A stretch of DNA of 42,262 nt from NCBI GenBank assembly GCA_964368775.1, contig CAYJCX010000002.1:1-42262 (forward strand). The letters run 5' to 3'. A program made the translations under genes and the position numbers. Under the pieces are notes generated by a model that saw nothing but the letters and a program-made list of their open reading frames with translations, searched no databases and was not told the DNA's origin. The DNA comes from an uncultured Candidatus Saccharibacteria bacterium. Lineage in GTDB: Bacteria; Patescibacteriota; Minisyncoccia; Phycocordibacterales; UBA9973. This document shows positions 44 through 41,392 of the stretch, one piece after another; within the stretch, counting starts at the first letter, position 1, and every line of letters starts with the position of its first letter.

Positions 44-2005
44 TTACATGAAGCTCTTATTTATGGTTGCAGCTCCGCCGGATGGCATTGCTATATCTTT
101 AGCTACTGGCGATCCAGGATTTACGGCGGCCATACTAGCTTGTGCTGCTTCCTGTTTAACTGCTAGTTCTTGATCATTTAGGAATAGGTCATCGAATGGT
201 TCGCCCATAACTTGCGCGTATCTTTGTTTAAGATTTTGCACTTTCATAGAATCCATACCGAATAGATTTGCAGCCTGTGTGATCATAGAGATATACATAG
301 CTTGCGTCATCTTGTCGTTGTTCTTGTCTACTGGCACAATTTCGTAATAGAAATAGTAGTCAGGGTTATTAACCATAGAACGTAGCATATCTGGATTCAT
401 GTCTGTGAAACGAACATCTTGGCCAAATTCTTCTTGGTACTTTAGTTCTTCTGCGTGTAGAGAATCACTTGTCGCAACATTAGGGTTTTTGAAACGTAGG
501 ATTCTTAGGCCTTTTGTACCGTTTTCGAACGTGTCTTTGATTGGTATGTCTTCTGTCTTGCGTGTTCCGTAGTATAGAAGATTCATTAAAATTAAATGAG
601 AGATTTGTTTTTCCCAGCCTATAACTGCGTCAAAGATTCCACCTAATTTTAGTAGCTGTTTCTTTTGGGTATCAAGATACTGGCCTAAAGTCATATCTGT
701 TTGTGGTTGTGTACCCTCCAAAAGAGAAGAAACAGACTTAGAATCAATCTGTTCTTTGATCATTTGGACAAATTGGAATCCATTATTAGACATTCCAGGA
801 GTGTCTATAAGATTTGATATATCTTCTTTACGTAGGTTACGTGTTAGCTTTGTAGGCATGAATATATCCGGGCTTAGAAGACGGCCAGAATTGTTACCCG
901 CTGGCGGAAACGCTGCTTGTTCGAATTGGATTTTAGCTATACGCACAAGAGAATCATAAAGAGCCTGATCCATCTTTGTCTTTGCGGGAATACCCTTTGA
1001 ATATGCGCATAGGTTCATTGGATCTATATCACCTTTAGCTATGTAAGCAATACCAGATGGCGAAATAGCGGTTAATGGAAATGTACCACCAGTCTTTGAG
1101 TGAGCAAGCATTGGAACACCATTAATATAGATTTGGTATCTATTTTCAAATGGGCGCTGTGCTTCTATGACTTCTACTTTATTAAAATCTACTTCTGTAA
1201 AGAACCATTCGGAATAGATAGAACCTTGCGTTACCATTGCGCCTACTGATCCAATTCCTGGAACTGTACGCTTTGGAACATTAGCCCAGCGTGGAGAAAA
1301 TCCCCATATTGATTCCATTATTTCACGAGAGACGTATTCAACAGTATAAATACCTGATTGTTTACCAATATCATTTTGGAAGAAGTCTTCTAGAAAAACC
1401 TTTTTGCCATCTACAAGATTACAAGATGGGCCGTCAAATTGTAGGTGCATACCTACATGTTCCCATTGGATACCATCAAGGTCTGTATAAGATCCCTCTG
1501 GATTTGTAATTACTTTCTTTGGAACCCAAGATTGGACATGTTTAATACTAGCAAATGCTGTACCTTGTACAATTAGGTTTCTGTAATGAATAGGTCGTTT
1601 GCGATCATAGTTATCCAGTTGGCGCGCTTTGCGGATCCAAGCTGTGAAAGATGTAGATAGATCACTTAGTTCTTTTTCTTTATAAAAAACACTAACCTGT
1701 GCTTCAAAGTTAAAGTTTTCTAACATTGAAAGGATAGTGCTGTCTTTTTCGTGTGTTATTCCGGATGTAACACGAGTATCAAATTTGTTTTTCTTTGGCG
1801 CAATAAAAGAAATATCGGCCATTTCATTTGTTTCGTTGTATTTGATATAACCCATTCCATCAAATTGTGGGTGGGCTGATTCACGAACCATAGAAATTGC
1901 GAATAGTTTATTTAAATCAAACGATCTCTCCTCTATCTCACTCTCTGTAAGTTTTGGAGCATCAACAGCATCTTGTGTTTTTTGTTCAAATGTTTGAGCT
2001 GGCAT
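44..2005 (-). CDS. portal protein (putative)
   Basis: 653-aa ORF directly downstream of the large terminase in the same orientation. Size and position are typical of portals. There is no motif-level proof. Confidence 0.6.
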   Translation of the reverse strand: MPAQTFEQKTQDAVDAPKLTESEIEERSFDLNKLFAISMVRESAHPQFDGMGYIKYNETNEMADISFIAPKKNKFDTRVTSGITHEKDSTILSMLENFNFEAQVSVFYKEKELSDLSTSFTAWIRKARQLDNYDRKRPIHYRNLIVQGTAFASIKHVQSWVPKKVITNPEGSYTDLDGIQWEHVGMHLQFDGPSCNLVDGKKVFLEDFFQNDIGKQSGIYTVEYVSREIMESIWGFSPRWANVPKRTVPGIGSVGAMVTQGSIYSEWFFTEVDFNKVEVIEAQRPFENRYQIYINGVPMLAHSKTGGTFPLTAISPSGIAYIAKGDIDPMNLCAYSKGIPAKTKMDQALYDSLVRIAKIQFEQAAFPPAGNNSGRLLSPDIFMPTKLTRNLRKEDISNLIDTPGMSNNGFQFVQMIKEQIDSKSVSSLLEGTQPQTDMTLGQYLDTQKKQLLKLGGIFDAVIGWEKQISHLILMNLLYYGTRKTEDIPIKDTFENGTKGLRILRFKNPNVATSDSLHAEELKYQEEFGQDVRFTDMNPDMLRSMVNNPDYYFYYEIVPVDKNNDKMTQAMYISMITQAANLFGMDSMKVQNLKQRYAQVMGEPFDDLFLNDQELAVKQEAAQASMAAVNPGSPVAKDIAMPSGGAATINKSFM

Positions 2006-2065: not shown

Positions 2066-3505
2066 TTAACCTAGATCAAATGGATCAAAATCTACTGTGT
2101 CTAATAAATCTTGCGCGTTTTGTATGTCTTCTTCTTGTGGAGACATAAATGCAAATTGTTTTTTAAGCATAAAGAATCCTCGCATAATGAAAGCATCCCC
2201 ATAATCGGGTGATCTTCCTAGTTCTGCTTTCATTTCATCTTTAGGAATAAGGGCCATCTTAACAGTATCATTATCCGGATTCTTAATTCGATACAGTGAA
2301 AGCTCCTGGTTAAACTCTTCATAGAATTGCATATCTTCTTCCATTGGAATTGATATAGCTACTTCATGGCGCTCGGTTAATTTAGCCATAACCCATGCAC
2401 ATTGGGTTTTAAGATTAGAAAAGTTTTGTTTCTCTAGATACTCATAGCGTGCATCTTCATTTTCTAATGGGGTTGAATTGTTTATAAATCCATATACACC
2501 AGTACATAAATCAACTACACCGCCGCCTACTCCGTCTTCATCAATAATGATATGGCTATATGGGATATTCTCAGTACGTGCATAGTCTTTTAGTTTTTGG
2601 GCTGTAACTTTAATATCTTGTTTTTGATAAACAACTTTTTTATATAGCTGCAAACCTTTCCAGAAATAGAAAACTGTTTTGTCATCTCCAAAGCGGGCCA
2701 CATCCACAGTCATGTATTTATCTTGTTCTCTAACAGTTGTTAGGGTATTAGACCAAAGATCATTAATAGGATCAAAGCCAAATAGTGTTCCGGCTACTGA
2801 ATCATATTCCCAGTTACCATCTTTAAGACGATCTCTAAGTGTTTTATCTTTTAGATTAGAAAGAGATCTTTCATATAAGGCGGATGTATGTTGGTTATCT
2901 CCGTAAAGTGCTTGAATGAAAGCATACCCAGCAGGTAGTAAATTATTCTTTGCGGGTAAATAAAAAACAGAATATGTCCAGTTCTTTTTTGGGTTTCCAG
3001 TTAATGCAAGCGTTGGGCGGATTTTAAATTCATCATTTTTATGACGGCCTACACGAGATTTAAGAACATCAAAGGCGCGAAAATCTATTTCTCCACATTC
3101 TTCCATAGCACCATCAGTATATTCGGATGATCCAAATCGTTCATAAAGCGGATCGGATGGTGCGTATTTAACATCAAGTAAATCAATACGTGATCCATTA
3201 GTAAATTCTATGTAGTGATATTGGCCGTTTAGTTTCCAGTGGACTCCTTGTTTTATATTATGAAAAGCACAGACTTTAACCCAAGTCTGGTATGTAGAAC
3301 CCATAAGGCGTGTTAATTCTTCACGAGCAATGAAAGATTTATAGCCTGGATATGCTAGAGCATTTATTAGTCTTGATTCACAAAGCCACCAAGACTTTCC
3401 TCCGCCGGCTCCTCCACCAAAAAATACATAGTCGTTACTCTTTAATGCTTGATACGCTTCGTATTGTTTCTTCGTAGGTCGTATTGTAACTGTCTGTTCC
3501 TCCAT
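2066..3505 (-). CDS. terL: terminase large subunit
   Basis: 479 aa. N-terminal Walker A-like FFGGGAGGGKSWW. C-terminal-half acidic nuclease-type motif VDVARFGDDKTVF. Flanked by the small-terminase candidate and the portal candidate. Confidence 0.9.
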   Translation of the reverse strand: MEEQTVTIRPTKKQYEAYQALKSNDYVFFGGGAGGGKSWWLCESRLINALAYPGYKSFIAREELTRLMGSTYQTWVKVCAFHNIKQGVHWKLNGQYHYIEFTNGSRIDLLDVKYAPSDPLYERFGSSEYTDGAMEECGEIDFRAFDVLKSRVGRHKNDEFKIRPTLALTGNPKKNWTYSVFYLPAKNNLLPAGYAFIQALYGDNQHTSALYERSLSNLKDKTLRDRLKDGNWEYDSVAGTLFGFDPINDLWSNTLTTVREQDKYMTVDVARFGDDKTVFYFWKGLQLYKKVVYQKQDIKVTAQKLKDYARTENIPYSHIIIDEDGVGGGVVDLCTGVYGFINNSTPLENEDARYEYLEKQNFSNLKTQCAWVMAKLTERHEVAISIPMEEDMQFYEEFNQELSLYRIKNPDNDTVKMALIPKDEMKAELGRSPDYGDAFIMRGFFMLKKQFAFMSPQEEDIQNAQDLLDTVDFDPFDLG

Positions 3506-4109
3506 TTGGATTCATAATTATGATTTGTTTTATTTCGACCTTGGATCCCTCGCCTGGTGGTAATTTATATTTACCTTTAATTTTCATATAAATATCTAGC
3601 CCATCTTTACGTGCGCGATTATCAGCAGACCAAAAATATACATAGCGAAAGTCTTGACCATGTATTATCTTTTTTACAGTACAGTTTACTTCGGCGAGCA
3701 TAATTTTAATTTCTTCATCAGTTATTTGCTCTGTATCATCTTCAATTATCTCCTCATAGTCATCTTCTTCATCTTTATTAAGATTAACTTTAGGTTTTTT
3801 AGGTTTTTTTAATGCAGGAAAAGTCATCTGGTCTAGATGTGTAGCTTTCATAAGACTTTTATGGGTTTCAATAGCTAAAGATTCCGGTATATGTTCTTTC
3901 ATTAGTTCTTCCCAGCCTTTAGATCTTGTTATTTGTTGGGGATTTTTTTGAGTAACAGCAGGAAGACCGGCATCTCTTATTGCCTTTGACACGCTAACTT
4001 TTCCAGTATTTTCCAGTTGTTCTTTGACTTTGTCAAATACTCTTCTTTGGTTAATGGTAGGTTTACGATTTATAGATTTTTTTGGTTTTACTGGGATGGT
4101 ATCTTCCAC
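3435..4109 (-). CDS. terminase small subunit (putative)
   Basis: 224 aa directly upstream of TerL. N-terminal HTH-like segment KVSVSKAIRDAGLPAVTQKNPQQI, followed by an acidic linker. Start codon is GTG (plus-strand cac at 4107-4109). The 3' end overlaps the TerL start by 71 nt in another frame. Confidence 0.5.
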   Translation of the reverse strand: MEDTIPVKPKKSINRKPTINQRRVFDKVKEQLENTGKVSVSKAIRDAGLPAVTQKNPQQITRSKGWEELMKEHIPESLAIETHKSLMKATHLDQMTFPALKKPKKPKVNLNKDEEDDYEEIIEDDTEQITDEEIKIMLAEVNCTVKKIIHGQDFRYVYFWSADNRARKDGLDIYMKIKGKYKLPPGEGSKVEIKQIIIMNPNGGTDSYNTTYEETIRSVSSIKE

Positions 4110-4136: not shown

Positions 4137-4183
4137 AAAAAAAGCCAATCCTCATGGTTCTGGTTTGTCCACAGGGAAAGGCT
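4137..4183 (-). terminator. intrinsic terminator between the HNH-fusion gene and TerS
   Basis: On the minus strand AGCCUUUCC ... GGAUUGGCU form an imperfect stem (4183-4175 / 4151-4143), followed by a run of 7 U (plus-strand A-tract 4137-4143). Confidence 0.55.
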
Positions 4184-4213
4184 AAATCTTATATATTATA
4201 TTTATTATTATTA

Positions 4214-4789
4214 TTAGTCATGGGGATTGTGTGAATATGTGGGGATAACCCGACTTTTTACTGCTAACATGCCACGATCTGCCAGTGCATGATGATTAGG
4301 ACAAAGTAAAGCTAGGTTTTCTATATCATCAGTTCCACCCTTATGTCTAGGAATAATATGATGGACTTCAACTACTTCATCAAAACTACATATAAAACAT
4401 TTACTACCATACATTTGATGTAAGTAACCATATTTCCCAGCTAATTTTAATTGAAATATTTTCTTCTTTTTTTCTTCTTTTATTTCTACTTTTACTTCGG
4501 GTGTTGGATCTAGATATTTTGTAAGATCCTTATATTTTTCTAGTAAAAATTGGAATCTATTATCACTTTCACTTTTATGAATTGAATGGATTACAGTAGT
4601 GTGATCCCTGTTTAAAATCTTTGCTATCCTAGGGTATGAAAGGAAATTAGCCCTACAAAGAGAAATAAACAAATCTCTTGCTTTAACTACTTCAATATCT
4701 CTTGCAGGGCTACTAATTTCTTCCTTAGTAAATCCAGTTTCCATAAAAACTATCTTAAAAACAACCTCTTTTATTTCGTCTATTCGCAT
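4214..4789 (-). CDS. DnaA C-terminal-domain-like HTH fused to an HNH endonuclease
   Basis: 191 aa. The N-terminal SSPARDIEVVKARDLFISLCRANFLSYPRIAKILNRDHTTVIHSIHK matches the DnaA domain IV signature (compare ...ARQIAMYL...IG..FG.RDHTTVLHA). The C-terminal CFICSFDEVVEVHHIIPRHKGGTDDIENLALLCPNHHALADRG is a complete HNH zinc-finger nuclease motif. Confidence 0.8.
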   Translation of the reverse strand: MRIDEIKEVVFKIVFMETGFTKEEISSPARDIEVVKARDLFISLCRANFLSYPRIAKILNRDHTTVIHSIHKSESDNRFQFLLEKYKDLTKYLDPTPEVKVEIKEEKKKKIFQLKLAGKYGYLHQMYGSKCFICSFDEVVEVHHIIPRHKGGTDDIENLALLCPNHHALADRGMLAVKSRVIPTYSHNPHD

Positions 4790-4800
4790 ACACGTAATAT

Positions 4801-4806
4801 ATTATA
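4801..4806 (-). promoter_or_regulatory. candidate -10 element (TATAAT) for the DnaA-HTH/HNH gene
   Basis: The minus strand reads CACCTATAAT, then 11 nt, then the ATG at 4789. No convincing -35. Two DnaA-like boxes lie just upstream. Confidence 0.4.
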
Positions 4807-4832
4807 GGTGTATAACTAAAACAAGCCCAAAA

Positions 4833-4852
4833 GTGGATAAAAAAGTGGATAA
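4833..4852 (-). promoter_or_regulatory. two tandem DnaA-box-like sites (TTATCCAC x2, 12-bp period)
   Basis: Plus-strand AAGTGGATAAAAAAGTGGATAAAAAG. Exact GTGGATAA at 4833-4840 and 4845-4852, which is TTATCCAC on the coding strand. Confidence 0.6.
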
Positions 4853-4913
4853 AAAGGGGAATAAAATAAACTAAATTTTGTGAAACATTTGTGAAACGTC
4901 TTTTCCCCTTTTT
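4851..4913. repeat. 11-bp inverted repeat AAAAAGGGGAA / TTCCCCTTTTT enclosing the TTTGTGAAAC repeats
   Basis: 4851-4861 is the exact reverse complement of 4903-4913. The intervening loop is about 41 nt. Confidence 0.6.
4877..4897. repeat. tandem direct repeat TTTGTGAAAC x2 (11-bp period, iteron-like)
   Basis: Copies at 4877-4886 and 4888-4897, read directly from the sequence. Confidence 0.6.
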
Positions 4914-4921
4914 ATACCCCT

Positions 4922-4976
4922 GTAATTAACAGTTTTAATACACTGGTAATTAACAGTCTAATAACCTGTTAATTAC
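4922..4976. repeat. three copies of GTAATTAACAG (two direct, one inverted), operator-like
   Basis: GTAATTAACAG at 4922-4932 and 4946-4956. The reverse complement CTGTTAATTAC lies at 4966-4976 and overlaps the stop codon of the upstream gene. Confidence 0.6.
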
Positions 4977-8432: not shown

Positions 8433-8461
8433 ATTATAGCAACCAGCAACCAGCAAGTAAA
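8433..8461 (-). promoter_or_regulatory. sigma70-type promoter TTTACT-N17-TGCTATAAT (extended -10), 6 nt before the ATG
   Basis: The minus strand reads ACTTTACTTGCTGGTTGCTGGTTGCTATAATCTAAATATG. The -10 is at 8438-8433 and the -35 at 8461-8456. The cassette is duplicated at 14710-14738. Confidence 0.6.
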
Positions 8462-8471
8462 GTGCAGGGGG

Positions 8472-8807
8472 TTATTTAAAGTGGATAACTTTTAAATATA
8501 AGTTACAGACCGCTTCTATTGGTATACCGCCAGTAGCTATAGGGGAATTAGGTAGTTTACCGTAGGTTAGGTATGCCTGCCATTTTTCATCATCTATTTG
8601 ATTTAATTGTAAGTAACCATGGCTTATTTTAGATAGGGCGTAAATTAATTCATCTAGAGTAGGGGATAGAAATTTGTTATCTGCGCCCCATGTGTAAAGT
8701 TCTACAATTCTAGATCTTGTATTTTCATTTTTAGAATCTATTGCGTCCGCTTTCTTAAATTTGTAGCCGGCGTCCTTTAATGCAAGGCAATGGAGTTCGC
8801 TTAACAT
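8472..8807 (-). CDS. hypothetical protein, paralog of 6524..6901
   Basis: 111 aa, sharing the motifs listed for 6524..6901. Confidence 0.5.
   Translation of the reverse strand: MLSELHCLALKDAGYKFKKADAIDSKNENTRSRIVELYTWGADNKFLSPTLDELIYALSKISHGYLQLNQIDDEKWQAYLTYGKLPNSPIATGGIPIEAVCNLYLKVIHFK
8481..8488 (-). promoter_or_regulatory. DnaA-box-like site (TTATCCAC) about 58 bp upstream of the putative start point
   Basis: Plus-strand GTGGATAACTTTTA, a 14-mer identical to the copy at 14759-14772. It lies in the last codons of gene 8472..8807. Confidence 0.55.
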
Positions 8808-12758: not shown

Positions 12759-13817
12759 TTATTCTTCTCCTGTTACTGTGCTATCTTCAATTTCTATATC
12801 ACTTGGGATATATATATTACTAGCATCTTTAATTTCTTTTAATATAGCGTCTGCCCAGTTTTTGTTTTCTTTTAGGTATTTACGTGATACGTCATAGCCT
12901 ACTCCTAGCTTTTGTCCTTGGAAAGAATATGTGTTACCAGATTTTTCAATAATTTTATATTTATCTCCTAGAGCTATTAATTCTCCCTCATACGATATTC
13001 CCTCGCCGTATAATAGGTCAAATTCTGTTTGTTTAAATGGTGGTGCTACTTTGTTTTTAACTACTTTTACTCTTGTTCTACCTCCAACAACTTCATCACC
13101 TTTTTTAATCTGTGCGATTCTACGAATATCTAGACGTACAGAACTATAGAATTTAAGAGCTTTTCCACCAGTAGTAAATTCCGGATTCACGCCAGGGAAC
13201 GCGCCGATATTCATACGGATTTGGTTAATAAAAATAACTACAGTTTTACTTTGGCTAACGATTGGGACCAGTTTTCTACATGCTTGGGACATTAGTTTTG
13301 CATGTCTTCCAATGATTTGATCTCCCATCTCTCCATCGATTTCTGCTTTTGGGGTTAGAGAAGCTACTGAATCAATAACGATTACAGCAAACTTATTGGA
13401 TCGTACCATGGCATCTACCATCTCTAGCGCGCTCTCTCCGTTCTCTGGTTGGCTCACTAGCAGTGTTCCAGTATCTACCCCGATCTTCTTAGCGTATAAG
13501 GGGTCTAAAGCGTGTTCTGCGTCAATAAAGGCGCAAATACCGCCTGTTTTCTGGGCTTGTGCAACTGCATGTAGAGCTAGAGTAGTTTTTCCACTAGATT
13601 CTGGACCAAATATTTCTACGATCCGCCCGCAAGGATAGCCGCCGATACCTAGAGCTAGATCTAAACCAAATGATCCTGTGGGTATAGCTTCTACATCCAT
13701 ATTAGGGGATTCGTCTAGGATCATTACAGATTCCTTGCCGAATTTACTCCTAATAGCAGTTAGTGTCTCATCTAATGTTTTGCCTGGACTTAAATTTTGT
13801 ATCTTTTTTTTAACCAT
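12759..13817 (-). CDS. recA: RecA recombinase (bacterial type)
   Basis: 352 aa. Colinear RecA signatures [20 protein letters not shown] (Walker A), [46 protein letters not shown] and [19 protein letters not shown]. Confidence 0.95.
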
Positions 13818-14709: not shown

Positions 14710-14738
14710 ATTATAGCAACCAGCAAGTAGCAAGTAAA
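14710..14738 (-). promoter_or_regulatory. sigma70-type promoter TTTACT-N17-TGCTATAAT (extended -10), 7 nt before the ATG
   Basis: The minus strand reads ACTTTACTTGCTACTTGCTGGTTGCTATAATAATAAACATG, near-identical to the cassette at 8433-8461. Confidence 0.6.
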
Positions 14739-14757
14739 GTATTTACAATCCACCGGA

Positions 14758-14766
14758 TGTGGATAA
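14758..14766 (-). promoter_or_regulatory. perfect DnaA box (TTATCCACA) in a divergent promoter region
   Basis: Plus-strand TGTGGATAA at 14758-14766. It forms part of the TCCAC-CGGAT-GTGGA inverted repeat at 14749-14763. Confidence 0.6.
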
Positions 14767-14772
14767 CTTTTA

Positions 14773-14781
14773 TGTTAAAAT
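14773..14781 (+). promoter_or_regulatory. extended -10 promoter (TGTTAAAAT), 6 nt before the ATG at 14788
   Basis: The plus strand reads TATGTTAAAATATTTCTATG. The DnaA box sits where a -35 element would be. Confidence 0.4.
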
Positions 14782-14787
14782 ATTTCT

Positions 14788-15168
14788 ATGAAAATAAAGT
14801 TGGACGTATCTCCTTTGTCGGTTAATAAGGCCTGGCAAGGAAGACGTTTTAAAACAGATGATTACAAGCAATTTGAGAGAGATGTTTGTAAATTATTATC
14901 AGCTACATTTAAAGCTAAAAATCAAAAACAGGAGGTTTTTGTGCATTATGTATATCACATACATAACTATGGAAATACTGACACTGCTAATATGGAAAAA
15001 TGTCTAACTGATATTCTAGTTAAGCGTGGCTATATTTTTGATGACCGCTATATACGCGCGATCTATCAAAGGAAAGAAAAGGTAGATTCTGTATCTAAAG
15101 AATGGATAGATATACATATTGTACCTTATGATGGGCAAGATATAGCTGGATTTAAAAGGGTTTTATAG
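14788..15168 (+). CDS. rusA: RusA-like Holliday junction resolvase
   Basis: 126 aa. N-terminal PLSVNKAWQGRRFKTDDYKQFERD and acidic core TDTANMEKCLTDILVKRGYIFDDRYI match the RusA family pattern (..PS.N........Y..W ... D.DN..K...D.L...G...DD..I). Confidence 0.6.
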   Translation: MKIKLDVSPLSVNKAWQGRRFKTDDYKQFERDVCKLLSATFKAKNQKQEVFVHYVYHIHNYGNTDTANMEKCLTDILVKRGYIFDDRYIRAIYQRKEKVDSVSKEWIDIHIVPYDGQDIAGFKRVL

Positions 15169-15172
15169 AAAA

Positions 15173-15191
15173 ATGGATAACTAGTGGATAA
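15173..15191 (-). promoter_or_regulatory. two adjacent DnaA-box-like sites (TTATCCAC + TTATCCAT, 11-bp period)
   Basis: Plus-strand AAATGGATAACTAGTGGATAAG. ATGGATAA lies at 15173-15180 and exact GTGGATAA at 15184-15191. Confidence 0.5.
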
Positions 15192-15195
15192 GTTC

Positions 15196-15233
15196 GGTTC
15201 CCGTTGGGGTACCCCAATGGGATATTTGGAACC
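15196..15233. repeat. hairpin with a perfect 14-bp palindrome, TTGGGGTACCCCAA
   Basis: Outer arms are GGTTCC (15196-15201) and GGAACC (15228-15233). The inner palindrome is at 15204-15217. Confidence 0.6.
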
Positions 15234-15236
15234 AAC

Positions 15237-15269
15237 AAAAAAAGACCACAGAGCGACTGGGTCTTTTTT
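15237..15269. terminator. bidirectional intrinsic terminator
   Basis: AAAAAAAGACC-ACAGAGCGACTG-GGTCTTTTTT, a stem flanked by an A-run and a T-run. It sits between the convergent rusA-like gene and the late operon. Confidence 0.65.
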
Positions 15270-15361
15270 ATTCATATGAACACGCTGCTTGGATCAATAG
15301 TCCGCTTGGCGTTTTATGTTGTACATTCAATATAGTAGCACACTTACTTAATTTTGTAAAC

Positions 15362-15387
15362 AAAAATACTCCACGCGGGGAGTATTT
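15362..15387 (-). terminator. intrinsic terminator ending the late (lysis) operon
   Basis: The minus strand reads AAAUACUCC-CCGCGU-GGAGUAUUU followed by UUGUUU. Confidence 0.6.
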
Positions 15388-15578
15388 CTATCAGGGGTAG
15401 AAATGAATAACATACATTTATTATTAGAATCTTCTCATCTTTTTTTCCCAAAAGACATGACAATTTATTGTTTTATGTGCGCTCTTGAAAGAACAACCTG
15501 TCTTGCATACGCCCCTGATGTGGAGTTATTTCATTACCACATTTGCTGTTGCGCTACACAGGCAGATTTATTATAACA

Positions 15579-15836
15579 TTAATTTCCAGAAACAATATTT
15601 TTTATTCTAGATTTTGTCATTGTTTTAGATCCAGACCATGCGCCCATTGCGGCTAATGATGATGCTAGACCTAATAAAACAATATCTCCGGCTAGTCCAT
15701 ATTTAAGTAAACCTATACAGATACCTAGAGTAATTGCTATGTATGGTTTATATTGTGATTTTACGCCAGTCTCACTTAGTATTGCTACTATAGCTATGAC
15801 TGTAGAAACTATATATCCATCTATGATTATTTCCAT
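15579..15836 (-). CDS. holin (putative)
   Basis: 85 aa with three hydrophobic helices and a charged C-terminal tail. It lies immediately downstream of the endolysin. Confidence 0.55.
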   Translation of the reverse strand: MEIIIDGYIVSTVIAIVAILSETGVKSQYKPYIAITLGICIGLLKYGLAGDIVLLGLASSLAAMGAWSGSKTMTKSRIKNIVSGN

Positions 15837-16938: not shown

Positions 16939-19900
16939 TTAATATTTTGCTTTTATTTGATCAAAAGTCCATTCTTTATTCTTGAATTTAGATATTGCTT
17001 CCTGTGCTTGTTTTTTATTTATTGAACCATCTCTTAGTTTTTTACCTAGATAGTTTTCTACTGGTGTATAACTAGCCCATTCTGCTGTAGGAACAAGTTT
17101 AAGATTCTTCTCATTATTACCACCTCCTAGCTCTAATGGAATTGTGTGGTCTAATTTCATTGTAGTTGTATTACCCCCGCGCTTTGTTTTAACCGCTTGG
17201 GATTCATCTTTACTCATACGCTCTACAATAATAGCTCCAGAATCCACACGGCGAATTTTTTGACCTGTGAATATACGGTTGAAAGCTGTAACCGGATCAG
17301 TTCCAATAGCCTTTGCATATGTAACTACTGTATTTACTACACCTAATTTAGAAACCTCTTGGTTGTCTTCATAGATTGGCTTATCTTCTTTAACCATCTC
17401 TGCGATTTGGTCATAGACAGTATCGGTAATAATATCTTTATCCTGTAGATTTGTAGCGTAGGTATTCTTTTCTTCTTTAGTATCTAGCTTGTTTAGCTCT
17501 CCGTAGATATAGCGTGCGCGATCTCCATTCTCTACTCCAAGAGATTTCATTTTCTTTTCATCAGGAGTTAGTTTAGTAGATTGGCCATAGCTATAAACTT
17601 TTTCAGCTAGATCTGGGTTTTCTTCTTCTAATTTTGTGAAAGCGGCGTTAGCTTCTTCTTTAGATGTGTCTGCTAATTTCTTTAGTTCTTCGTATTTAGC
17701 TTGTACTACAAGACGCGCTGCTTTTTCATTGGCAGATTCGGCTTTAGTAGCTTGATCTATAGCACTAGTTGATTCAAGATACGGCTCTCTTAAAATCTTA
17801 GGAATTAAAGATTGCTTAATAGTTCTCATTCCAGGGATCTCTCCTTTTTCATTACGCTCTCCCATACTTCCTAGTAATTGAGAAATAGCACCAGCTAATC
17901 CGGTAGCCCATGATGCAAGACGCGGCACTGCGAATAGAGTTTGTGGATCTAGAGCTTGTAAGAAAGAGAATATATCGTTGTATGCTCTATATTCTAATTC
18001 TTCTATAAGATTTCGGTCTTTCTTATTCTTTAGATCACGGTACATATTACCAATGATAGCCACCATAAGAGCTGTTAGAGTAATAGCGCGGATTAGTTCG
18101 TGCGCTTCTTTAGCCTTAGCAGCAGTTTTAATTTCTCCATTCTTTAATAGTTTTGTTAGAGTAGTTATATTACTTAGAGTTTGAGTTAGAATTGGGACCG
18201 CCCAAGATTTATGTTGTCTAACTGCTGCACCAACAGATGTTTTACCCATAACAGAAGCTAATAGATCATCTGCGCGCCAGCGATTCATTTCATTTTTGAT
18301 TTCAGCTAGTCTTTTTGTAGATACTTTTCCAGATTCAAATTCTTCTTTAGTTAGACTTCCTAGAAGATGGGTAAGATTAGCTTGACGAGCAGCTATGCCA
18401 TAGAAAGCAAATATTGTTTCACCTAATTTACTACCAGCATCTTTAGATTGGTCTTTCATTTTAGTAAAGAATGTTTGACCTACAAAAGATTCATATTTCT
18501 TTATTAGTTCTTTACCCTGTTTTGTCTTTGAGCGGAATAATCCGAGAGCTTGTTTTTGCGCGCCAATGTTTATGAATGTTGCAGCCTGTTCTCCAACAAG
18601 AGACATAGCTTGCGCTGGCACACGGAAAGCAAGGTCAAGGAAACGGGTAAATGTTACCCCAGATCTTATTAGAATATCTAAAGTCCCACCTGGTTTAATT
18701 GGACCAAGTGCTGTAGGACGGCCTTTTTGTGTATTGATCCATTTCTTAACAAAGTTAAGTAGTGATTCATCTTTGATAAGTCCACCCTCTGTTGTCTCTG
18801 TAGGCGTTAGGGCGCGCGCTACGGCTTCCATTTTAGGGATATATCTATCTAGACCTTTCTTAACTTCAAACGTCTTCACGTAGCCCAGAAACGCTCCAGC
18901 GACATTTCTAGATGGAATTAGAGTTCCACTACGCTTCATAGAGTATTTAAAGAATTTCTCTAATGGTAGAACGTCTCCGGTTCTTTCATTAAGAATCTTA
19001 AATGTAGCTTCGTCCATCTTATTTACGTCCCATACTGTTTCTTTAAATGCGCGGGCAAATGCGCCAATAAATTGTTTAGGGGATTTCTTTGCACCATCTT
19101 TTAGCCATGCTTCCAAGAATGAACGTGGACGGTGTGTGTAATAGTTTTCACGTACACGATCAAGCATATCTAATTTAACTAGATAATCCCGCATTTCTGC
19201 ATAGGTATCACGGATATAATGAGCTAGTTCTAATTCAGCCGGTGTCATTGCGGATGCGATCTTAGCCTTTACAGCTTCGTCTCCCTCCTCTAAATATGAA
19301 ACAACTAGATCATCTGTAGGTACTAGACGGTCAATAAGACCACGCTTTCTAGATGCGCGAGCTTTCTTTGTTAATTCATTAGTTTTTTTCTCTATTTCTC
19401 TATAAGCCTTTTCTCCCTCTATCTTAATTTCGTATGCGTCAGCTACCAGGACTTCATAGAAAGGGTTTTGGCGCGCTAGAGATGTAGCAGATCTAAATTC
19501 ATCAAGCCAGTCTGTAGAGATTTGTTTTGCCTGTTCTAGTGTTACTCCAGTTCTCTTAACTAAAACTTCTTCTAGAATTTGTCTTTGTGTCTTTACATGT
19601 GGCAAATCCGTGTTCTTCATTAGAGTTTCAATTTCTCTTTGACCTAAGAAAACATCTCCTTGCTCGAATGTACCTATGATTTCATTTAGTTTATTTAGTT
19701 CTTCTGTAGATAGATTATTTAGATCTTGGGATAGGCCCATAGCTAACTGTAGGTTTTCTACTCTATGTAGATCCTTTTCAGCTATTGTATATTCTACTTC
19801 GGCTATAGCTTGGACATGGCGCGCAATTTCTAGAGCTTTATCTTGGACCTTGTTTAATAGGTTATCAAATTCTGTATCAGTTAGTAGACGAATATCTGCG

Positions 19901-22900
19901 CCGCCTAGAATATCAGCCATCTCTCTATCAGTTAAATAGAAATGATCCCTAATGGCATTTATAGTTTGTTTGCGATCTAATCCTTTTTTGCGTAGTTCTG
20001 CCTTTACAGCTTCAATAACCTTTTTCTTTTCACCTAGGAATTTAGCTTGGCGTTCTTGCGCTTTTAGTTTACTTTGTGGGTTTACAAATTCATTTTTCTT
20101 GTTTACATAGTCGTTATAGTCTTTCTGTGCTTCATCTATGTTTCTGTAACCTAATTCATCTAGAATATCCTGGCCTTTTTTACCAAAGACAGTATCGGAA
20201 CCTATACGTGGTAATTGACCGGTACTCTTTTGGACATATTTACTTAGAGCGCGGGCTTTATGGTTTAAGACTTCTTCTCTACGTGTTTTAGATTCAGCGC
20301 GAACATCAGCTACGAATTGATCTATCTTATCCTTGTTTTCAATCATAGATGCTATGTCTTTAACATCTGCTTTTGTAACAATTTGGTTAGCATAGTCTAT
20401 TGGCTGGCCCTCACTTTCCATTTGGGCGATTTTAGCCAAAGCTAATTCATCCTTTTGGTCTACTATAAAATCTTTAACTTCTCTTTTAACTTGCGCTACT
20501 CTTTCCTTGTGTAGTTGTTTCTTATCCCAGAAATTAGCAAAAGCAGTACGTACTTCTTCTGTGTCTACGTTTCCGTTGTCATCTAAGTATTGTTGAAAAT
20601 CACTAGAATCAAGTAGTGTATCTCCACGTGTAGCAAATTTACCTTTCCCTTTATTCTTTTCATTTCTTCCAAGTATTTCCGGTAGTATTCCCTCTTTCTT
20701 ATTAGCAAATTTAGTTAGGCTATTTAGTGGATCATATTTTAGAGCTTCATTCTCTAGTTCTAGTTGAGTTATTTCTTGTTGTAATTCTGGACTAAGCTCT
20801 ACTTCATTATTTCCTACTTGAATCTTTTTAAATTTAACAGGTGTAGCTCCTGTACGCTTTTCTGCATGCGCTAGTGTTGCGCGTAGATCTGCCATTTTAT
20901 CTCCGGTATCAAAGAATGGATGCTTTTCCATAGGTAGGCCATCTTCGTCTTCATTCTTTTCTCTAAATGCTACTACTGGCGCGTCAGCCATGGATGGGTC
21001 TATTTCTACTTCATACCAAGTTACCCCCATATCATCTGTAATAGGTTTTGCGTCATAGTTATTTTTTAGGTATCGGCCTAGATCTTTTTCATAGAAACGG
21101 TATATAGGGTTATTTGTGTCTACCTTTCCTGAGATGTCGAAGGTTTCTGCCCTACTATGATTACCAAAATCTTTTGCAATTTCTTCTGGTGTGTAGGCTT
21201 CCCATCTGATTCCCAAATTATTTTGGGTTAAATCTTTCGGCACTGCCTTAAACTTTCCATCTCCGAGGACATTGGTGATTATCCAGTCAGAACCAGCTTG
21301 TTGCACTGTTTCGCCAGTTTTCAAGTCGCCAATTTCTAGTTTATCACTAACCCTCTTACCATCTAGTTCGTAGATTCTTCTCCAGTTTGGAGTTTCTCCC
21401 AACCCCTCTACTTTCATAGCTGTTTCACCTGTAGGGAATTGGACATAAGATTTACCGTCTTGTGCTGCTTTCTTTATTTCTTCTCGGACCATGCGGAAGT
21501 GGGCAGTGGGGTCGTTGTATTGAGAAAGTTTAGCTACTTCTGTTTTTCTATTAGCTATTTTAGATTTGTCATAAATCGCGCCGCCTTGTGGAACATTACC
21601 TAATTGCCCTGGAATAATTTTATTTTCAGATGGTATTGATAATTCATTTTCTAAATTGCCTTTCTGGTATAGATCACTTTGGACTTCTATTACTCTACGA
21701 GTAGTATCATCTGCCATGTCTTCTATGCGGGTATGGCCGAAATAGTTAGGAGCATCTCCACCATAATGGATTGATCCAGCGCTAGTTGGAATTGGACTTT
21801 CGTAGACATGTTCTTGGTATTCATAAACTTCACCACGTAGATCAGCAGTTAATGTTGTATTCTCATGGCGTGGCTCTCCCATTGGCCCCTCTGTAACATC
21901 TACCATTTCTAATGGTAGTAATTCTGCTGTAACTTTATCAGCAAAATCTTTAACATTTACTATTTTACCCTCTGTTTCTAAGACGTTTCGTAGTATGTCT
22001 TTCTCTTGTTGTTTTAGATCACTAGCGTTAGTTAGATCTTGGATAAATTGTTTAGATACAGTAGTGCGGCCTTTTAGTTTCTCTAGAGTTTTTAGGGTTA
22101 GATCTAGCTCACCTGTGTATAGTAGGTTTTGTGTAGAGCGCTCTCCATATTTTAGGTTATTGTCTTGGACATCATTTACATATGAATTAATCATTGTATT
22201 ATTGGTCTCAATATCTGGCGCGTTTTCTGCGATCATTGCTACGTGTTCTTGTACCGCTTCTGTGTCTTCTGCCTTTAGGGTAATAGAAGAATAGCCACGC
22301 TTATCTAATTCGTTGTTAATTATATCTATTTGGCGGTCAATATTTAGAGAACGGTCTATAAAAGTATCTAGAGAAATATTAGAATTAAACTTTAGGCCAA
22401 TGAAATTTATAATATCATTAGCTACGTCTTCGTTACTATTCTTAACTATATTTTCTTTAATCTTGTTTATAGTTCTATTCCAGTAGTTTTTGTATGGGTT
22501 ATTAGTATTTTCCCATGCTTGCTTTACTGTCTCTGGGGTTTGTTTTAAGTTTTGGTAGAAATCTGCGCGAGATTCTGGAGATAACTTTAAATACCATGAA
22601 TGGCCCGCAAGCTCATGGTTAATAATTGCTCCGGATTCATATAGATCCGTAGACATTTCATCTGGGTTTAGGTATATGGTATCTTCTGTAAAAGCAGATA
22701 CATATGATCGATCATTATAGCTATCTGTAACTATAACATAAGTTACTCCGCCTTGTGTGGATGTTTGTTCTATTTTGTCTACAAGTTGATTTGAAAAACC
22801 TAAATTACGTAGAAGAAATGGGGTATCTTCTGTTATTCTTGTTCGCTTTCCTCCTGTGAGTTGTTCGTGCTGTCCAACCAGTAGTTTATTGCGCTCTCCA

Positions 22901-41141: not shown

Positions 41142-41180
41142 ATTAATTATTCAAAATAAGGAGCCTTATAAATTTTTATA

Positions 41181-41219
41181 CAAAAATAGGCAAGAACCTA
41201 CTTTCGTACTGTTCTTGCC
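41181..41219 (-). terminator. intrinsic terminator ending the leader RNA, 40 nt upstream of the capsid-operon ATG
   Basis: The minus strand reads GGCAAGAAC-AGUACGAAAGUAG-GUUCUUGCC (9-bp perfect stem) followed by UAUUUUUG. Confidence 0.7.
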
Positions 41220-41346
41220 TGGGCTGTTAGCTTCTTGGCCTAGATGGCTTTCTGCTTTGCGTACGGGGCGACCGTCCGATTTCAGGTGTGGATGTTTGGA
41301 TTCGGAGTATTCCCCTATCCGTATAGCGAGTCCTCCCGGACACGAT
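41182..41346 (-). ncRNA. ~165-nt structured leader / small RNA between the late promoter and its terminator (unknown class)
   Basis: Bounded by a TTGTAC-N17-TATACT promoter and the terminator. It is locally GC-rich. The 5' hairpin GUAUAUCGUGUCC-GGGA-GGACUCGCUAUAC has a GNRA loop. A second hairpin is GGAUAGGGG-AAUA-CUCCGAAUCC. Confidence 0.5.
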
Positions 41347-41352
41347 ATACAT

Positions 41353-41381
41353 AGTATAAAGAAATAAAATAAATTGTACAA
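41353..41381 (-). promoter_or_regulatory. sigma70-type promoter TTGTAC-N17-TATACT (candidate late/capsid promoter)
   Basis: The minus strand reads TTATCCACATGTTGTACAATTTATTTTATTTCTTTATACT. The -35 is at 41381-41376 and the -10 at 41358-41353. Confidence 0.55.
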
Positions 41382-41383
41382 CA

Positions 41384-41392
41384 TGTGGATAA
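41384..41392 (-). promoter_or_regulatory. perfect DnaA box (TTATCCACA), 2 bp upstream of the -35 hexamer
   Basis: Plus-strand TGTGGATAA at 41384-41392. Confidence 0.6.

Follow-up and report, generated by a model that had tools for sequence, protein, structure and literature searches.

A candidate mobile gene of Patescibacteria phages couples a DnaA-type DNA-binding domain to an HNH nuclease within an origin-like array of DnaA boxes

Introduction

Replication origins are usually regarded as off-limits for mobile DNA. A stretch of 42,262 nucleotides assigned to an uncultured Saccharibacteria bacterium (hereafter, the window) contains an open reading frame, here called X (4214..4789, minus strand), which was noted in a preliminary description as a DnaA-box-reading domain fused to an HNH nuclease and encoded directly upstream of phage terminase genes. 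The locus raises the question of what a nuclease equipped with the DNA-binding domain of a bacterial initiator would do in such a place. We describe here the domains of X, the DnaA boxes around it and its distribution among phages and chromosomes. As discussed below, we give a probability of about one half to the reading that X is a homing-type mobile endonuclease targeting DnaA boxes and origins.

Domain Architecture of X

X starts with ATG in the open reading frame list of the window and encodes 191 amino acids: a DnaA domain IV, a linker, an HNH nuclease and a short tail. In Pfam, residues 9-72 (4574-4765) matched Bac_DnaA_C (PF08299; E=1.6e-14, 54.1 bits vs a gathering score of 31.5), and residues 131-165 matched HNH (PF01844; E=5.1e-10, 39.8 bits vs 21.4), as well as HNH_2 (E=1.8e-8). 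The precomputed PF08299 match is present in all 50 aligned homologues. Bac_DnaA and DnaA_N, which represent domains III and I, had no Pfam match in X, and the NCBIfam DnaA models matched only the C-terminal part, far below their cut-off. X without domains I-III cannot, therefore, oligomerise on ATP or unwind DNA. NCBIfam and PADLOC searches otherwise yielded domain-level matches far below family cut-offs and no defence-system model. An identity as an HUH TnpA_REP/TIRYT protein was considered and rejected, the Y1 HUH transposase domain being without a Pfam match in X.

An AlphaFold model built from an alignment of 50 sequences (mean pLDDT 85.7) predicted two well-folded domains, residues 1-92 (4514..4789) and 121-177 (4259..4429), separated by a low-confidence linker at residues 93-120 (4430..4513) that is rich in lysine and glutamate, has pLDDT <70 and varies in length within the family. 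When the isolated domains were compared with known structures by using Foldseek, the top list for the N-terminal domain consisted of 3pvp, 8btg, 1j1v, 2hcb and 1l8q (probability 1.0, TM 0.66-0.73). The first of these is the Mycobacterium tuberculosis DnaA-DBD on box DNA (TM 0.73 on target), and the next two are the Bacillus subtilis origin-unwinding complex and Escherichia coli domain IV with a DnaA box. The C-terminal domain resembled the HNH domains of McrA, IscB and Cas9 in the PDB. The N-terminal domain is 36% identical to domain IV of a Patescibacteria DnaA.

The residues by which DnaA reads its box are largely maintained in the N-terminal domain, which contains the recognition helix R61-D62-H63-T64-T65..H68 together with R30 and R38. 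Aligned to the E. coli DnaA sequence, whose numbering agrees with the 94-residue chain of 1j1v, R30 corresponds to R399 (arginine in 48/50 family members, lysine in 2/50), R38 to R407 (50/50), D62 to D433 (47/50), H63 to H434 (50/50), T64 to T435 (threonine in 44/50, serine in 6/50) and H68 to H439 (35/50); the position equivalent to P423 is variable, with proline in only 18/50. In the nuclease domain, the zinc ligands C131, C134, C163 and H166, the H143-H144 pair, N158 and H167 are all invariant in the 50 homologues. The preliminary description had read the first ~75 residues as DnaA domain IV with the basic-loop arginine and the RDHTTVIH contacts, and the C-terminal end as a complete HNH finger; the Pfam scores and the predicted fold bear out the first of these readings, the contact residues hold in a proper alignment, and PF01844 together with the eight invariant residues agrees with the last. 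It had also suggested profile searches of both domains and comparison with DnaA-box complexes, both of which proved supportive. Judged from profiles and model, X is thus confirmed as a genuine DnaA domain IV joined by a flexible linker of ~28 residues to an intact zinc-finger HNH nuclease. From this composition we infer that X would bind the DnaA boxes and that it would cut DNA.

The same two-domain architecture, for which a search had likewise been proposed, is common to ~60 sequence clusters. Alleles are 36-56% identical and retain every catalytic residue, which points to long-term selection on a function but does not indicate the nature of that function. GenBank phage records contained neither a DNA match nor a protein match spanning both domains. 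As far as the literature searched goes, no description of a DnaA domain IV-HNH fusion was found, and within the same literature the earlier statement that no characterised protein pairs DnaA-box recognition with a nuclease holds; a DnaA_C domain has been described for a nuclease only in a subgroup of the HUH TnpA_REP/TIRYT proteins (PMC6006769).

DnaA Boxes and Promoter-Like Sites in the Window

Boxes are found on both sides of X. The 3' end of the gene (4199..4250, minus strand) contains TTATCCCCA (4248-4240), CAATCCCCA (4229-4221), the stop codon TAA (4216-4214) and five NTA triplets, CTA ATA ATA ATA ATA (4217-4203), followed by AT-rich DNA. This is a degenerate copy of a box-box-spacer-trio module that is found in other family members and in Patescibacteria oriC: the proximal box has three mismatches, there are five triplets, and the same DNA scores as promoter-like (TTCACA-17-AATAAT, 4235-4207, minus strand). 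The spacer of 104 bp that separates X from the next gene contains a one-mismatch DnaA box in the opposite orientation, TTGTCCACA (4165..4173, plus strand). On the 5' side, TTATACACC (4815-4807) abuts TATAAT (4806-4801) within 4801..4815 of the minus strand, 11 nt before the start codon, and an ATACAC...GTGTAT inverted repeat spans the -10 element and the ATG. Further upstream are three tandem 12-nt units, TTATTCCCCTTT / TTATCCACTTTT / TTATCCACTTTT (4829..4864, minus strand), which include two exact TTATCCAC boxes (4852-4844 and 4840-4832). Beyond these boxes, 4877..4976 is densely repeated, with an 11-nt unit twice (4877-4898), a 24-nt unit twice (4909-4956) and GTAATTAACAG inverted repeats (4946-4976). 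In addition, the two arms of a perfect 13-nt inverted repeat (4849-4861 / 4903-4915) fall on either side of the point where this span begins, the left one just outside it, in the tandem-box region.

Exact TTATCCAC occurs six times in the window vs 1.67 expected, each time on the transcribed strand; five copies are between called open reading frames, upstream of promoter-like sites, and the sixth (8488-8480) is within the last codons of the open reading frame 8472-8807. Minus-strand boxes distant from X include TTATCCACT (8488-8480, in 8433..8488), 50 nt upstream of the -10 of a promoter, TTTACTTGCTGGTTGCTGGTTGCTATAAT; TTATCCACA (14766-14758, in 14710..14766), which precedes the -10 of a near-identical promoter by 51 nt; and another TTATCCACA (41392-41384, in 41360..41392), which abuts a TTGTAC-17-TATACT promoter-like site. 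Boxes at fixed distances from strong promoters suggest a regulatory role for some box-binding protein. X itself could be that protein and act mainly as a DnaA-mimicking transcription factor, using the inverted boxes over the -10 element and start codon to repress its own promoter and controlling the other boxed phage promoters, with an HNH domain used for dimerisation or a secondary activity. Inverted box pairs over the -10 element and start codon of X in seven loci (the window, L001, L003, L004, L071, L244 and L247) agree with such a regulator, as do the strand bias and promoter proximity of the exact boxes and the 50-51 nt spacing at two near-identical promoters. However, invariant catalytic and zinc residues would be superfluous in a purely structural HNH domain, these boxes could be bound by host DnaA, and neither the presence/absence pattern nor the chromosomal insertion described below is explained; we consider it very unlikely that X is mainly a regulator.

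An Origin-Like Array around X

The enrichment of boxes extends beyond the window. When 19 distinct loci were scanned with up to one mismatch allowed, box density was 8.25 per kb over the 300-bp upstream region of X and 7.4 per kb within 100 bp of its stop codon, vs 0.95 per kb in the gene body and 0.38 per kb elsewhere, i.e., an approximately 20-fold enrichment just upstream of X and at its 3' end. An unbiased 7-mer test ranked TCCACAG, TATCCAC, ATCCACA, TATACAC and TTATCCC highest, at 17-26-fold. A box, a spacer and at least 3-4 NTA triplets were located 16 nt before the stop codon in 10 of 21 loci; the same pattern was found elsewhere twice in 465 kb of those loci and nine times in 942 kb of unrelated viral loci, and ~40 nt before dnaN in all eight empty chromosomal sites examined. 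The 3' module carried by many copies of X, in which a pair of boxes is followed by a GC spacer and (NTA)n "DnaA-trios", is thus oriC-like and is present also in Patescibacteria chromosomal origins. The basal unwinding system has been defined (PMC8287927) by a DnaA box no more than 16 bp from three or more trinucleotides whose central base on the trio strand is A, an arrangement found in the empty chromosomal sites and in 10 of 21 cassette 3' ends. The orientation of trios relative to boxes was judged by motif identity with host dnaA-dnaN spacers. The X gene behaves like a mobile cassette set in an oriC-like array of DnaA boxes, and its link to origins is stronger than is evident from the letters of the window alone.

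Such an array might simply be an origin. The boxes around X would then form a DnaA-dependent phage origin mimicking host oriC, of which X is a working part; X would bind the origin boxes and may either nick there, so that the 3' end primes rolling-circle replication ahead of packaging, or compete with host DnaA and cut host oriC, thereby shutting down replication of the host. In layout the cassette matches the host dnaA-dnaN spacer, down to the box pair and trios, and its 3' boxes lie inside the open reading frame, as the lambda origin lies inside gene O. X often heads the packaging module, a position suited to a late switch of replication mode. Among the 30 largest open reading frames of the window, no polymerase, helicase, primase or initiator was recognised, only RecA and RusA, so the phage probably depends on host initiation. 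Against a phage origin, GC skew of the window showed no origin signal, although almost every gene is on the minus strand, which makes skew uninformative as an origin marker. To our knowledge, known origin-nicking initiators are HUH enzymes, not HNH enzymes. Rfam families and tRNAs were also searched for in the window, and none were found.

Presence, Absence and Replacement of X

A homologue of X, P0012, is located between dnaA and dnaN of a Saccharibacteria metagenome-assembled genome, as shown by three independent assemblies, and 27 relatives lack X at the dnaA-dnaN site, including one with a 99.6% identical DnaA. The empty chromosomal site reads GTTATACACATTT|CCACAGGGTTAATAGTAATAG. The occupied site retains TTATACACA on the left, and its right junction is inside a box: the last codons and stop of X at this copy (CCA CAG GGT TAA) are host sequence, the empty site carrying GTTATACACATTTCCACAGGGTTAATAGTAATAG. 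No terminase is near this copy, and the closest relatives of P0012 are phage-borne. The chromosomal pair L130 and L131 showed no clear co-conversion gradient around the insertion, with a divergence of 0-12% per 100 nt all along the comparison.

Phages provide empty sites of a second type. In the lineage of L067 and L071, X is located between TerL (phrog_675, 4e-93) and portal (phrog_156), and in 13 of the 15 phages TerL is followed by portal and X is absent. Most of these X-less phages have TTATCCC(C/A) or TTTTCCCCA right after the TerL stop codon, which is the position of the cassette in the other two; the empty TerL-portal spacer of L338, for example, is TAA-ATTATCCCAATTG. The flanks of L067 and L071 are 96.5-98.4% identical, whereas the X proteins of the two phages share only 42% identity; the similarity is lost at the first box. 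A DnaA-box-like sequence is therefore present at the junction of both the chromosomal and the TerL-portal empty sites.

These patterns weigh against an origin of which X is a working part. Because 13 of the 15 phages are without the cassette, it is not their essential origin; near-identical phages carry two very different alleles; and one copy resides in a chromosome already equipped with DnaA and oriC. We regard a phage origin served by X as unlikely.

Position Relative to Terminase Genes

X was described as being encoded upstream of the terminase genes, and this position was upheld, TerL being confirmed and the small terminase being placed by position only. The large subunit (2066..3505, minus strand; Terminase_3-like, PHROG phrog_2, E=6e-20) is the next open reading frame but one downstream of X and is 42% identical to the annotated TerL of Bacteroides phage Versailles. 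Directly downstream of X is a 224-aa open reading frame (3435..4109, minus strand), a small-terminase candidate by position only that had no match in Pfam, PHROGs, NCBIfam or PDB. A 653-aa open reading frame (44..2005, minus strand), 27% identical to the portal-position frame of L068, is a portal candidate by positional inference, without a family or PDB match.

HNH genes beside cos sites and terminase genes have been reported as packaging factors or nickases (PMC3592412, PMC12967558, PMC9410871), and X may accordingly be read as a terminase partner of the kind found in HK97-like cos phages, its DnaA-type domain positioning the nuclease at boxes beside the terminase genes that would form part of a cos or pac site. 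X is directly upstream of a TerS-sized open reading frame, TerL and portal in four of ~11 phage contexts (the window, L068, L247 and L330), and boxes occur in the spacer between X and TerS. In four further contexts (L244, L245, L003 and L243), X lies 1.7-5 kb upstream of terminase in the same orientation. However, in L067 and L071 X separates TerL from portal, and in L004 it is chromosomal; L003 has a different HNH gene right after TerL, with X 5 kb away, and other HNH genes accumulate near X. TerL of the window is of the Terminase_3-like type; in its closest relatives from cultured phages, those of Bacteroides phage Versailles and Flavobacterium phage 11b, the gene order is TerS-TerL-portal and no HNH gene is annotated alongside. 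L240, the phage closest to the window in TerL, has no X within 6 kb. L240 was also considered as an empty site for the window and rejected, its TerL identity of 44% being too distant to define a junction. The window contig has no terminal repeat or circular overlap. The earlier proposal of an HK97-type terminase cofactor is thus weakened by a Terminase_3-like TerL without an annotated HNH partner in its closest cultured relatives, by variable position, by absence from 13 of the 15 phages of a lineage with conserved TerL and portal, where X sits after TerL when present, and by a chromosomal copy away from any terminase. X as a core packaging gene, our first idea, was dropped because of the presence/absence results, and a packaging cofactor now appears quite improbable.

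A Proposed Homing-Type Nuclease Targeting DnaA Boxes

The reading of X as a homing-type mobile endonuclease would account for these observations as follows. Domain IV would dock on DnaA boxes (TTATCCACA and close variants), and the HNH domain, tethered by the linker, would nick or cut nearby DNA. X is carried on a small cassette of ~0.7-0.9 kb laid out like the Patescibacteria dnaA-dnaN origin spacer, i.e., reverse boxes, forward boxes around its own promoter and then the open reading frame, with a 3' end in which a forward box pair inside the last codons precedes a GC spacer, the (NTA)n trios and then AT-rich DNA. This cassette appears to behave as a free-standing homing-endonuclease gene, with presence/absence, allele swaps and junctions in box-like sequence, and to have invaded phage intergenic sites near terminase or portal genes and at least one bacterial oriC. 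We infer that the insertions were driven by X's own cut. Recombination between look-alike box and promoter sequences would, however, yield the same picture, and the conserved position of X in four plus four of ~11 contexts also fits a useful phage gene. Boxes stay intact on both sides of X, so how an occupied site escapes cutting is not obvious, unless the target is a close box pair that is split by the insertion.

More tentatively, and short of an even chance in our estimation, X may be an "origin-homing" endonuclease, a selfish element with a borrowed initiator DNA-binding domain and a replacement box-pair-plus-trio module, for which Patescibacteria phages are the main reservoir and the vehicle into chromosomal oriC. 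If the target is the origin DnaA-box pair, it cannot mutate away without losing DnaA binding, and because the cassette brings its own 3' box-pair-plus-trio, an invaded origin, or a downstream promoter, would keep working.

Relation to Known Systems

The box enrichment, the origin-like layout and the presence/absence and replacement patterns are new findings. Like I-HmuI and T4 Mob/I-TevIII-like HNH genes, X is a small HNH gene with a separate DNA-binding module, found sporadically between conserved genes; with free-standing HNH homing genes in general, it shares differing alleles at one site, HNH clustering around terminase and portal, and hard-to-change targets. X, which is a candidate here, differs from them in that its binding module is DnaA domain IV and not of NUMOD, zinc-ribbon or AP2 type, its sites are DnaA boxes and a replication origin, and its cassette has its own origin-like flanks. 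HK97 gp74-type HNH proteins and zinc-ribbon HNH nickases (PMC3592412, PMC9410871) belong to the same CxxC...CxxH subfamily, and several phages have X just upstream of terminase. In contrast to these proteins, X has an added sequence-specific domain, is found with a TerL that is not of HK97 type, is neither constantly adjacent to terminase nor kept among phages sharing TerL and portal, and is present also in a chromosome.

With domain IV of DnaA (PF08299), X shares the fold, the basic-loop arginine, the R-D-H-T-T..H helix and a gene surrounded by boxes; unlike in DnaA, the domain is N-terminal and fused to a nuclease, and domains I-III are missing. HUH TnpA_REP/TIRYT proteins of subclass 2.1.2 (PMC6006769), which have a Bac_DnaA_C-like domain at the C-terminus, are the only described case in which the DNA-cutting enzyme of a mobile element is joined to such a domain. 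Their nuclease is of the HUH/Y1 class, not HNH, and their domain order is the reverse of that in X. Their flanking repeats, GGGG[AT][CG]A[CG], are unlike DnaA boxes (PMC6006769), whereas true boxes flank X. Bipartite oriC with a basal unwinding system, as in B. subtilis and Helicobacter pylori (PMC8287927, PMC10721633), likewise has box clusters flanking a gene with a DnaA-type binding domain; on the downstream side, a tandem box pair and a short GC spacer are followed by repeated trinucleotides, in which the central A is on the complementary strand, and by AT-rich DNA. The flanked gene in our case encodes a 19-22 kDa nuclease, not DnaA, and is phage-borne, and the window copy of the module is degenerate.

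An intact nuclease gene thus lies within a bacterial oriC, flanked by its last DnaA boxes, and the same cassette appears to move among phages. Should X prove to cut beside DnaA boxes, it would represent a naturally occurring nuclease whose programming relies on the most conserved protein-DNA code of bacteria. Such an enzyme, small and modular at 191 aa, might be used as an origin probe, an origin-directed antibacterial or phage weapon, or a nicking enzyme; it would show how selfish elements pick inescapable targets and would offer a first handle on how phages of the ultra-small, uncultured Patescibacteria cope with host replication initiation.

Domain IV copies of ~90-190 aa also occur in phages as stand-alone "DnaA C-terminal" proteins of uncultured Caudovirales. 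Proteins of this kind gave the best structural matches from the viral library; they differ from X in having no nuclease domain, and none is characterised. In one locus, L333, such a stand-alone gene adjoins X.

A DnaA domain IV-HNH fusion protein

The 191-aa protein encoded at 4214-4789 on the minus strand had been described, from the nucleotide sequence, as a DnaA-box-reading domain fused to an HNH nuclease, and this description was borne out exactly. Both domains match Pfam models above the cut-off: Bac_DnaA_C at aa 9-72 (54.1 bits versus a cut-off of 31.5) and HNH at aa 131-165 (39.8 bits versus 21.4). The predicted structure (pLDDT 85.7) comprises two compact domains separated by a disordered linker (aa 93-120). 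As expected from the alignment by eye with DnaA domain IV, the N-terminal domain superposes best on box-DNA-bound DnaA DNA-binding domains (3pvp, 1j1v, and 8btg, the last being the B. subtilis unwinding complex); McrA, IscB, and Cas9 HNH domains are structural matches of the C-terminal domain. Domain IV of a Patescibacteria DnaA is 36% identical to the N-terminal domain. Across 50 homologues, the box-reading residues are kept (equivalents of R399, R407, D433, H434, T435, and T436, and mostly H439), and the catalytic and zinc-binding residues of the HNH domain are invariant. This two-domain architecture is suited to docking on DnaA boxes and cutting DNA, both of which are predicted activities.

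A word-indexed search yielded about 50 proteins with both domains, 36-51% identical to the window protein and nearly all carried by metagenomic contigs, many of 38-47 kb. An exhaustive profile search, covering 1.84 billion cluster representatives, yielded 57 representatives at E<=1e-30 and, in all, about 65-70 covering both domains. Among 185,579 species, one genome each, only two distinct genomic places carry the architecture. GenBank phage records held no match spanning both domains, NCBIfam has no model naming the architecture, and no description of a DnaA domain IV-HNH fusion was found in the literature searched. Stand-alone "DnaA C-terminal" proteins are, unlike the fusion, common in uncultured phages; one such 109-aa gene (locus L333, 998-1327) lies directly upstream of the homologue P0037. 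Three proteins, P0103 (673 aa), P0119 (1680 aa), and P0164 (891 aa), contain 5-8 tandem domain IV-like modules and are arrays of putative box readers. A DnaA_C-like tail also occurs in one subgroup of the HUH TnpA_REP proteins (PMC6006769).

DnaA boxes and an origin-like 3' end

Upstream of the start codon in the window, at 51-63 nt, lie two exact TTATCCAC boxes in 12-nt tandem units, and a weaker box adjoins the -10 element. The last codons contain two further box-like elements, with another in the spacer before the next gene. This layout is conserved across loci. When boxes with at most one mismatch were counted at 19 distinct loci, density reached 8.25 per kb over the 300 bp preceding the gene and 7.4 per kb at distances of up to 100 bp from the stop codon, versus 0.95 per kb in the gene body and 0.38 per kb elsewhere. 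With no prior assumption on motif, the top 7-mers (TCCACAG, TATCCAC, ATCCACA, TATACAC, TTATACA, and TTATCCC) were 17-26-fold enriched. Most distal boxes (-250 to -100) are in reverse and most proximal ones in forward orientation, and at least 7 loci have an inverted box pair across the -10 and start codon. Boxes are few or absent at L246, L070, and L164. Such boxed promoters are what a DnaA-mimicking regulator would act on, a role that we regard as very unlikely for this protein. Two forward boxes recur at -35 and -16 relative to the stop codon, so the variable C-terminal tails (..DIH.., ..YPQD, ..PQG) are encoded by box DNA.

In many cassettes (the gene plus its flanking boxes), a 3-nt GC-rich spacer, 3-7 NTA triplets (DnaA-trios), and AT-rich DNA come in that order after the -16 box, as in TTTTCCACA GGG ATA ATA ATA GTA ATA, with the stop codon forming part of the first triplets. 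We found this pattern at exactly the -16 position in 10 of 21 loci; elsewhere the same loci contained it only twice in 465 kb, and unrelated viral loci 9 times in 942 kb. All eight Patescibacteria dnaA-dnaN spacers examined carry the motif as well, some 40 nt upstream of dnaN. The search definition published for the basal unwinding system of bacterial origins (PMC8287927) asks for DnaA boxes no more than 16 bp from three or more trinucleotides whose central base on the trio strand is adenine, and as a sequence criterion it takes in the cassette motif. The cassette might be a working phage origin module, the protein serving as origin nickase or as a weapon against the host oriC; we consider this unlikely. 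The window's own module is degenerate (boxes TTATCCCCA and CAATCCCCA, then five triplets) and also scores as a promoter for the terminase operon, and hence we call it origin-like rather than an origin.

Presence and absence at oriC and in phages

The homologue P0012 (43% identical) lies between dnaA and dnaN of a Saccharibacteria MAG, downstream of rnpA-yidD-yidC-jag, a placement present in three independent assemblies; its closest relatives are phage-borne. Comparison of 30 related loci, retrieved via its DnaN, revealed no trace of the gene in 27 relatives, where dnaA-dnaN spacing is about 205-255 bp; one of these has a 99.6% identical DnaA. In the alignment, the empty site reads ...GTTATACACATTT joined directly to CCACAGGGTTAATAGTAATAG..., and the occupied site reads ...GGTTATACACAT, a 34-nt promoter with an inverted box, the ORF, and GGTAAT, joined to CCACAGGGTTAATAG.... 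The right junction falls inside a box, and host origin sequence supplies the last three codons and stop of the gene. A contig identical in sequence to the Saccharibacteria one over dnaA-fusion-dnaN (L006/L129, CAYSXR010000018.1) is binned in a MAG labelled Gammaproteobacteria, probably a binning error.

In one phage lineage, L067 and L071 carry the gene between those for TerL (phrog_675, E=4e-93) and portal (phrog_156). Among 15 related phages, 13 lack it, portal coming straight after TerL across spacers of 2-1092 nt; most of these 13 carry a box-like TTATCCC(C/A) or TTTTCCCCA after the TerL stop codon, and homology of the occupied genomes resumes at CTAATCCCAATTGA. L067 and L071, from the same sample, have flanks 96.5-98.4% identical and fusion proteins only 42% identical, similarity being lost at the first box. 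The gene and its boxes come and go as a unit at box-like phage sites and, in one case, at a genuine oriC. A second HNH gene adjoins the fusion gene in L071, and L003 has three other HNH genes. A TT(A/T)TCCCC(A) element, often adjoining TATAA, is conserved directly after TerL across the lineage (L338-L350) and may be a lineage-specific promoter element resembling a DnaA box by chance.

We favor, at roughly even odds (about 0.5), a homing-type mobile endonuclease guided by DnaA's own DNA-binding domain, because this accounts for most of the evidence on the domains, the box array, and the presence/absence pattern. Box binding, cutting, and cut-driven insertion are inferred. The enzyme's target would be two boxes in close succession, as in the empty oriC, where TTTCCACAG comes directly after TTATACACA; insertion would separate the pair, and the cassette's 3' box pair would give back what the invaded site needs. 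The same junctions could also arise by ordinary recombination between box and promoter sequences that look alike, and no co-conversion gradient was visible. HNH nucleases with swapped DNA-binding modules and free-standing phage homing genes are well known. The homing-type enzyme proposed here is of the same general kind; what is new is DnaA domain IV as guide, DnaA boxes and the origin as habitat, and the origin-like cassette, which makes it relevant to work on replication origins, mobile elements, and CPR phages. Homing and the other readings are not mutually exclusive, and domestication could well have given a homing enzyme one of those roles.

Position relative to the terminase genes

The gene immediately precedes a TerS-sized ORF, followed by TerL and a portal-sized ORF, in the window, L068, L247, and L330; 1.7 kb upstream of the terminase in L244 and probably L245; 4.5-5 kb upstream, with a chaperonin gene intervening, in L003 and L243; downstream of TerL in L067 and L071; and downstream of lysis genes in L246. 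Because position varies so, the link to the packaging module is real but loose. An HK97-style packaging cofactor is accordingly quite improbable: the window has a Terminase_3-like TerL; in the closest cultured relatives of that TerL, the order is TerS-TerL-portal and no HNH is annotated alongside, and the closest metagenomic relative lacks a fusion gene within 6 kb. The intervening genes are of Cpn60/GroEL type (L003, 11260-12783; L243, 5722-7452), and Tad2-like and Acb2/Tad1-like anti-defence genes are close by in these phages. L244, a 40.6-kb phage contig, encodes a reverse transcriptase (RVT_1; 1955-2965) a few kb upstream of the fusion gene.

The phage genome and its other boxed features

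The window is a tailed-phage genome, a complete contig of 42,262 bases with nearly all genes on the minus strand. TerL (2066-3505, minus strand; phrog_2, E=6e-20) shares 42% identity with the TerL annotated in Bacteroides phage Versailles, and tail, glycine-rich, and peptidoglycan-binding proteins are also encoded. A full-length bacterial-type RecA (12759-13817, minus strand; Pfam E=3e-122) has its best matches, 63-67% identical, in Patescibacteria (e.g., Adlerbacteria, Paceibacterota, and Saccharibacteria), which indicates that the host is most likely a member of this group (CPR). The 30 largest ORFs included no recognisable polymerase, helicase, primase, or initiator. The genome is mostly unannotatable: a 2631-aa ORF (16939-24834, minus strand) and three others of 908-1021 aa lack Pfam/PHROG matches, bar one weak minor-tail match.

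At 8433-8488 and 14710-14766 (minus strand) lie two near-identical strong promoters (TTTACTTGCT..GGTTGCTATAAT), both with a DnaA box located 50-51 nt upstream of the -10. The first of these boxes (8488-8480) falls within the final codons of ORF 8472-8807, just as boxes do at the 3' end of the fusion gene. At 41166-41392 (minus strand), a boxed promoter (TTATCCACA plus TTGTAC-17-TATACT) is followed by about 200 nt of GC-rich sequence terminating in a hairpin and T-run; the 72-aa ORF called there may instead be a structured RNA, for which Rfam gave no match. A small RNA may be encoded in the long intergenic region 15200-15580, where a terminator-like hairpin (AAAAAAGACCCAGTCGCTCTGTGGTCTTTTTTT) and a promoter-like TTTACA-17-TACTAT are present. 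The RusA-like resolvase gene (14788-15168, plus strand), the only sizeable plus-strand gene in that stretch, has DnaA boxes on both flanks (14766-14758, and TTATCCACT-AG-TTATCCATT at 15191-15171), and the stretch 14758-15191 looks like another box-bounded insert.
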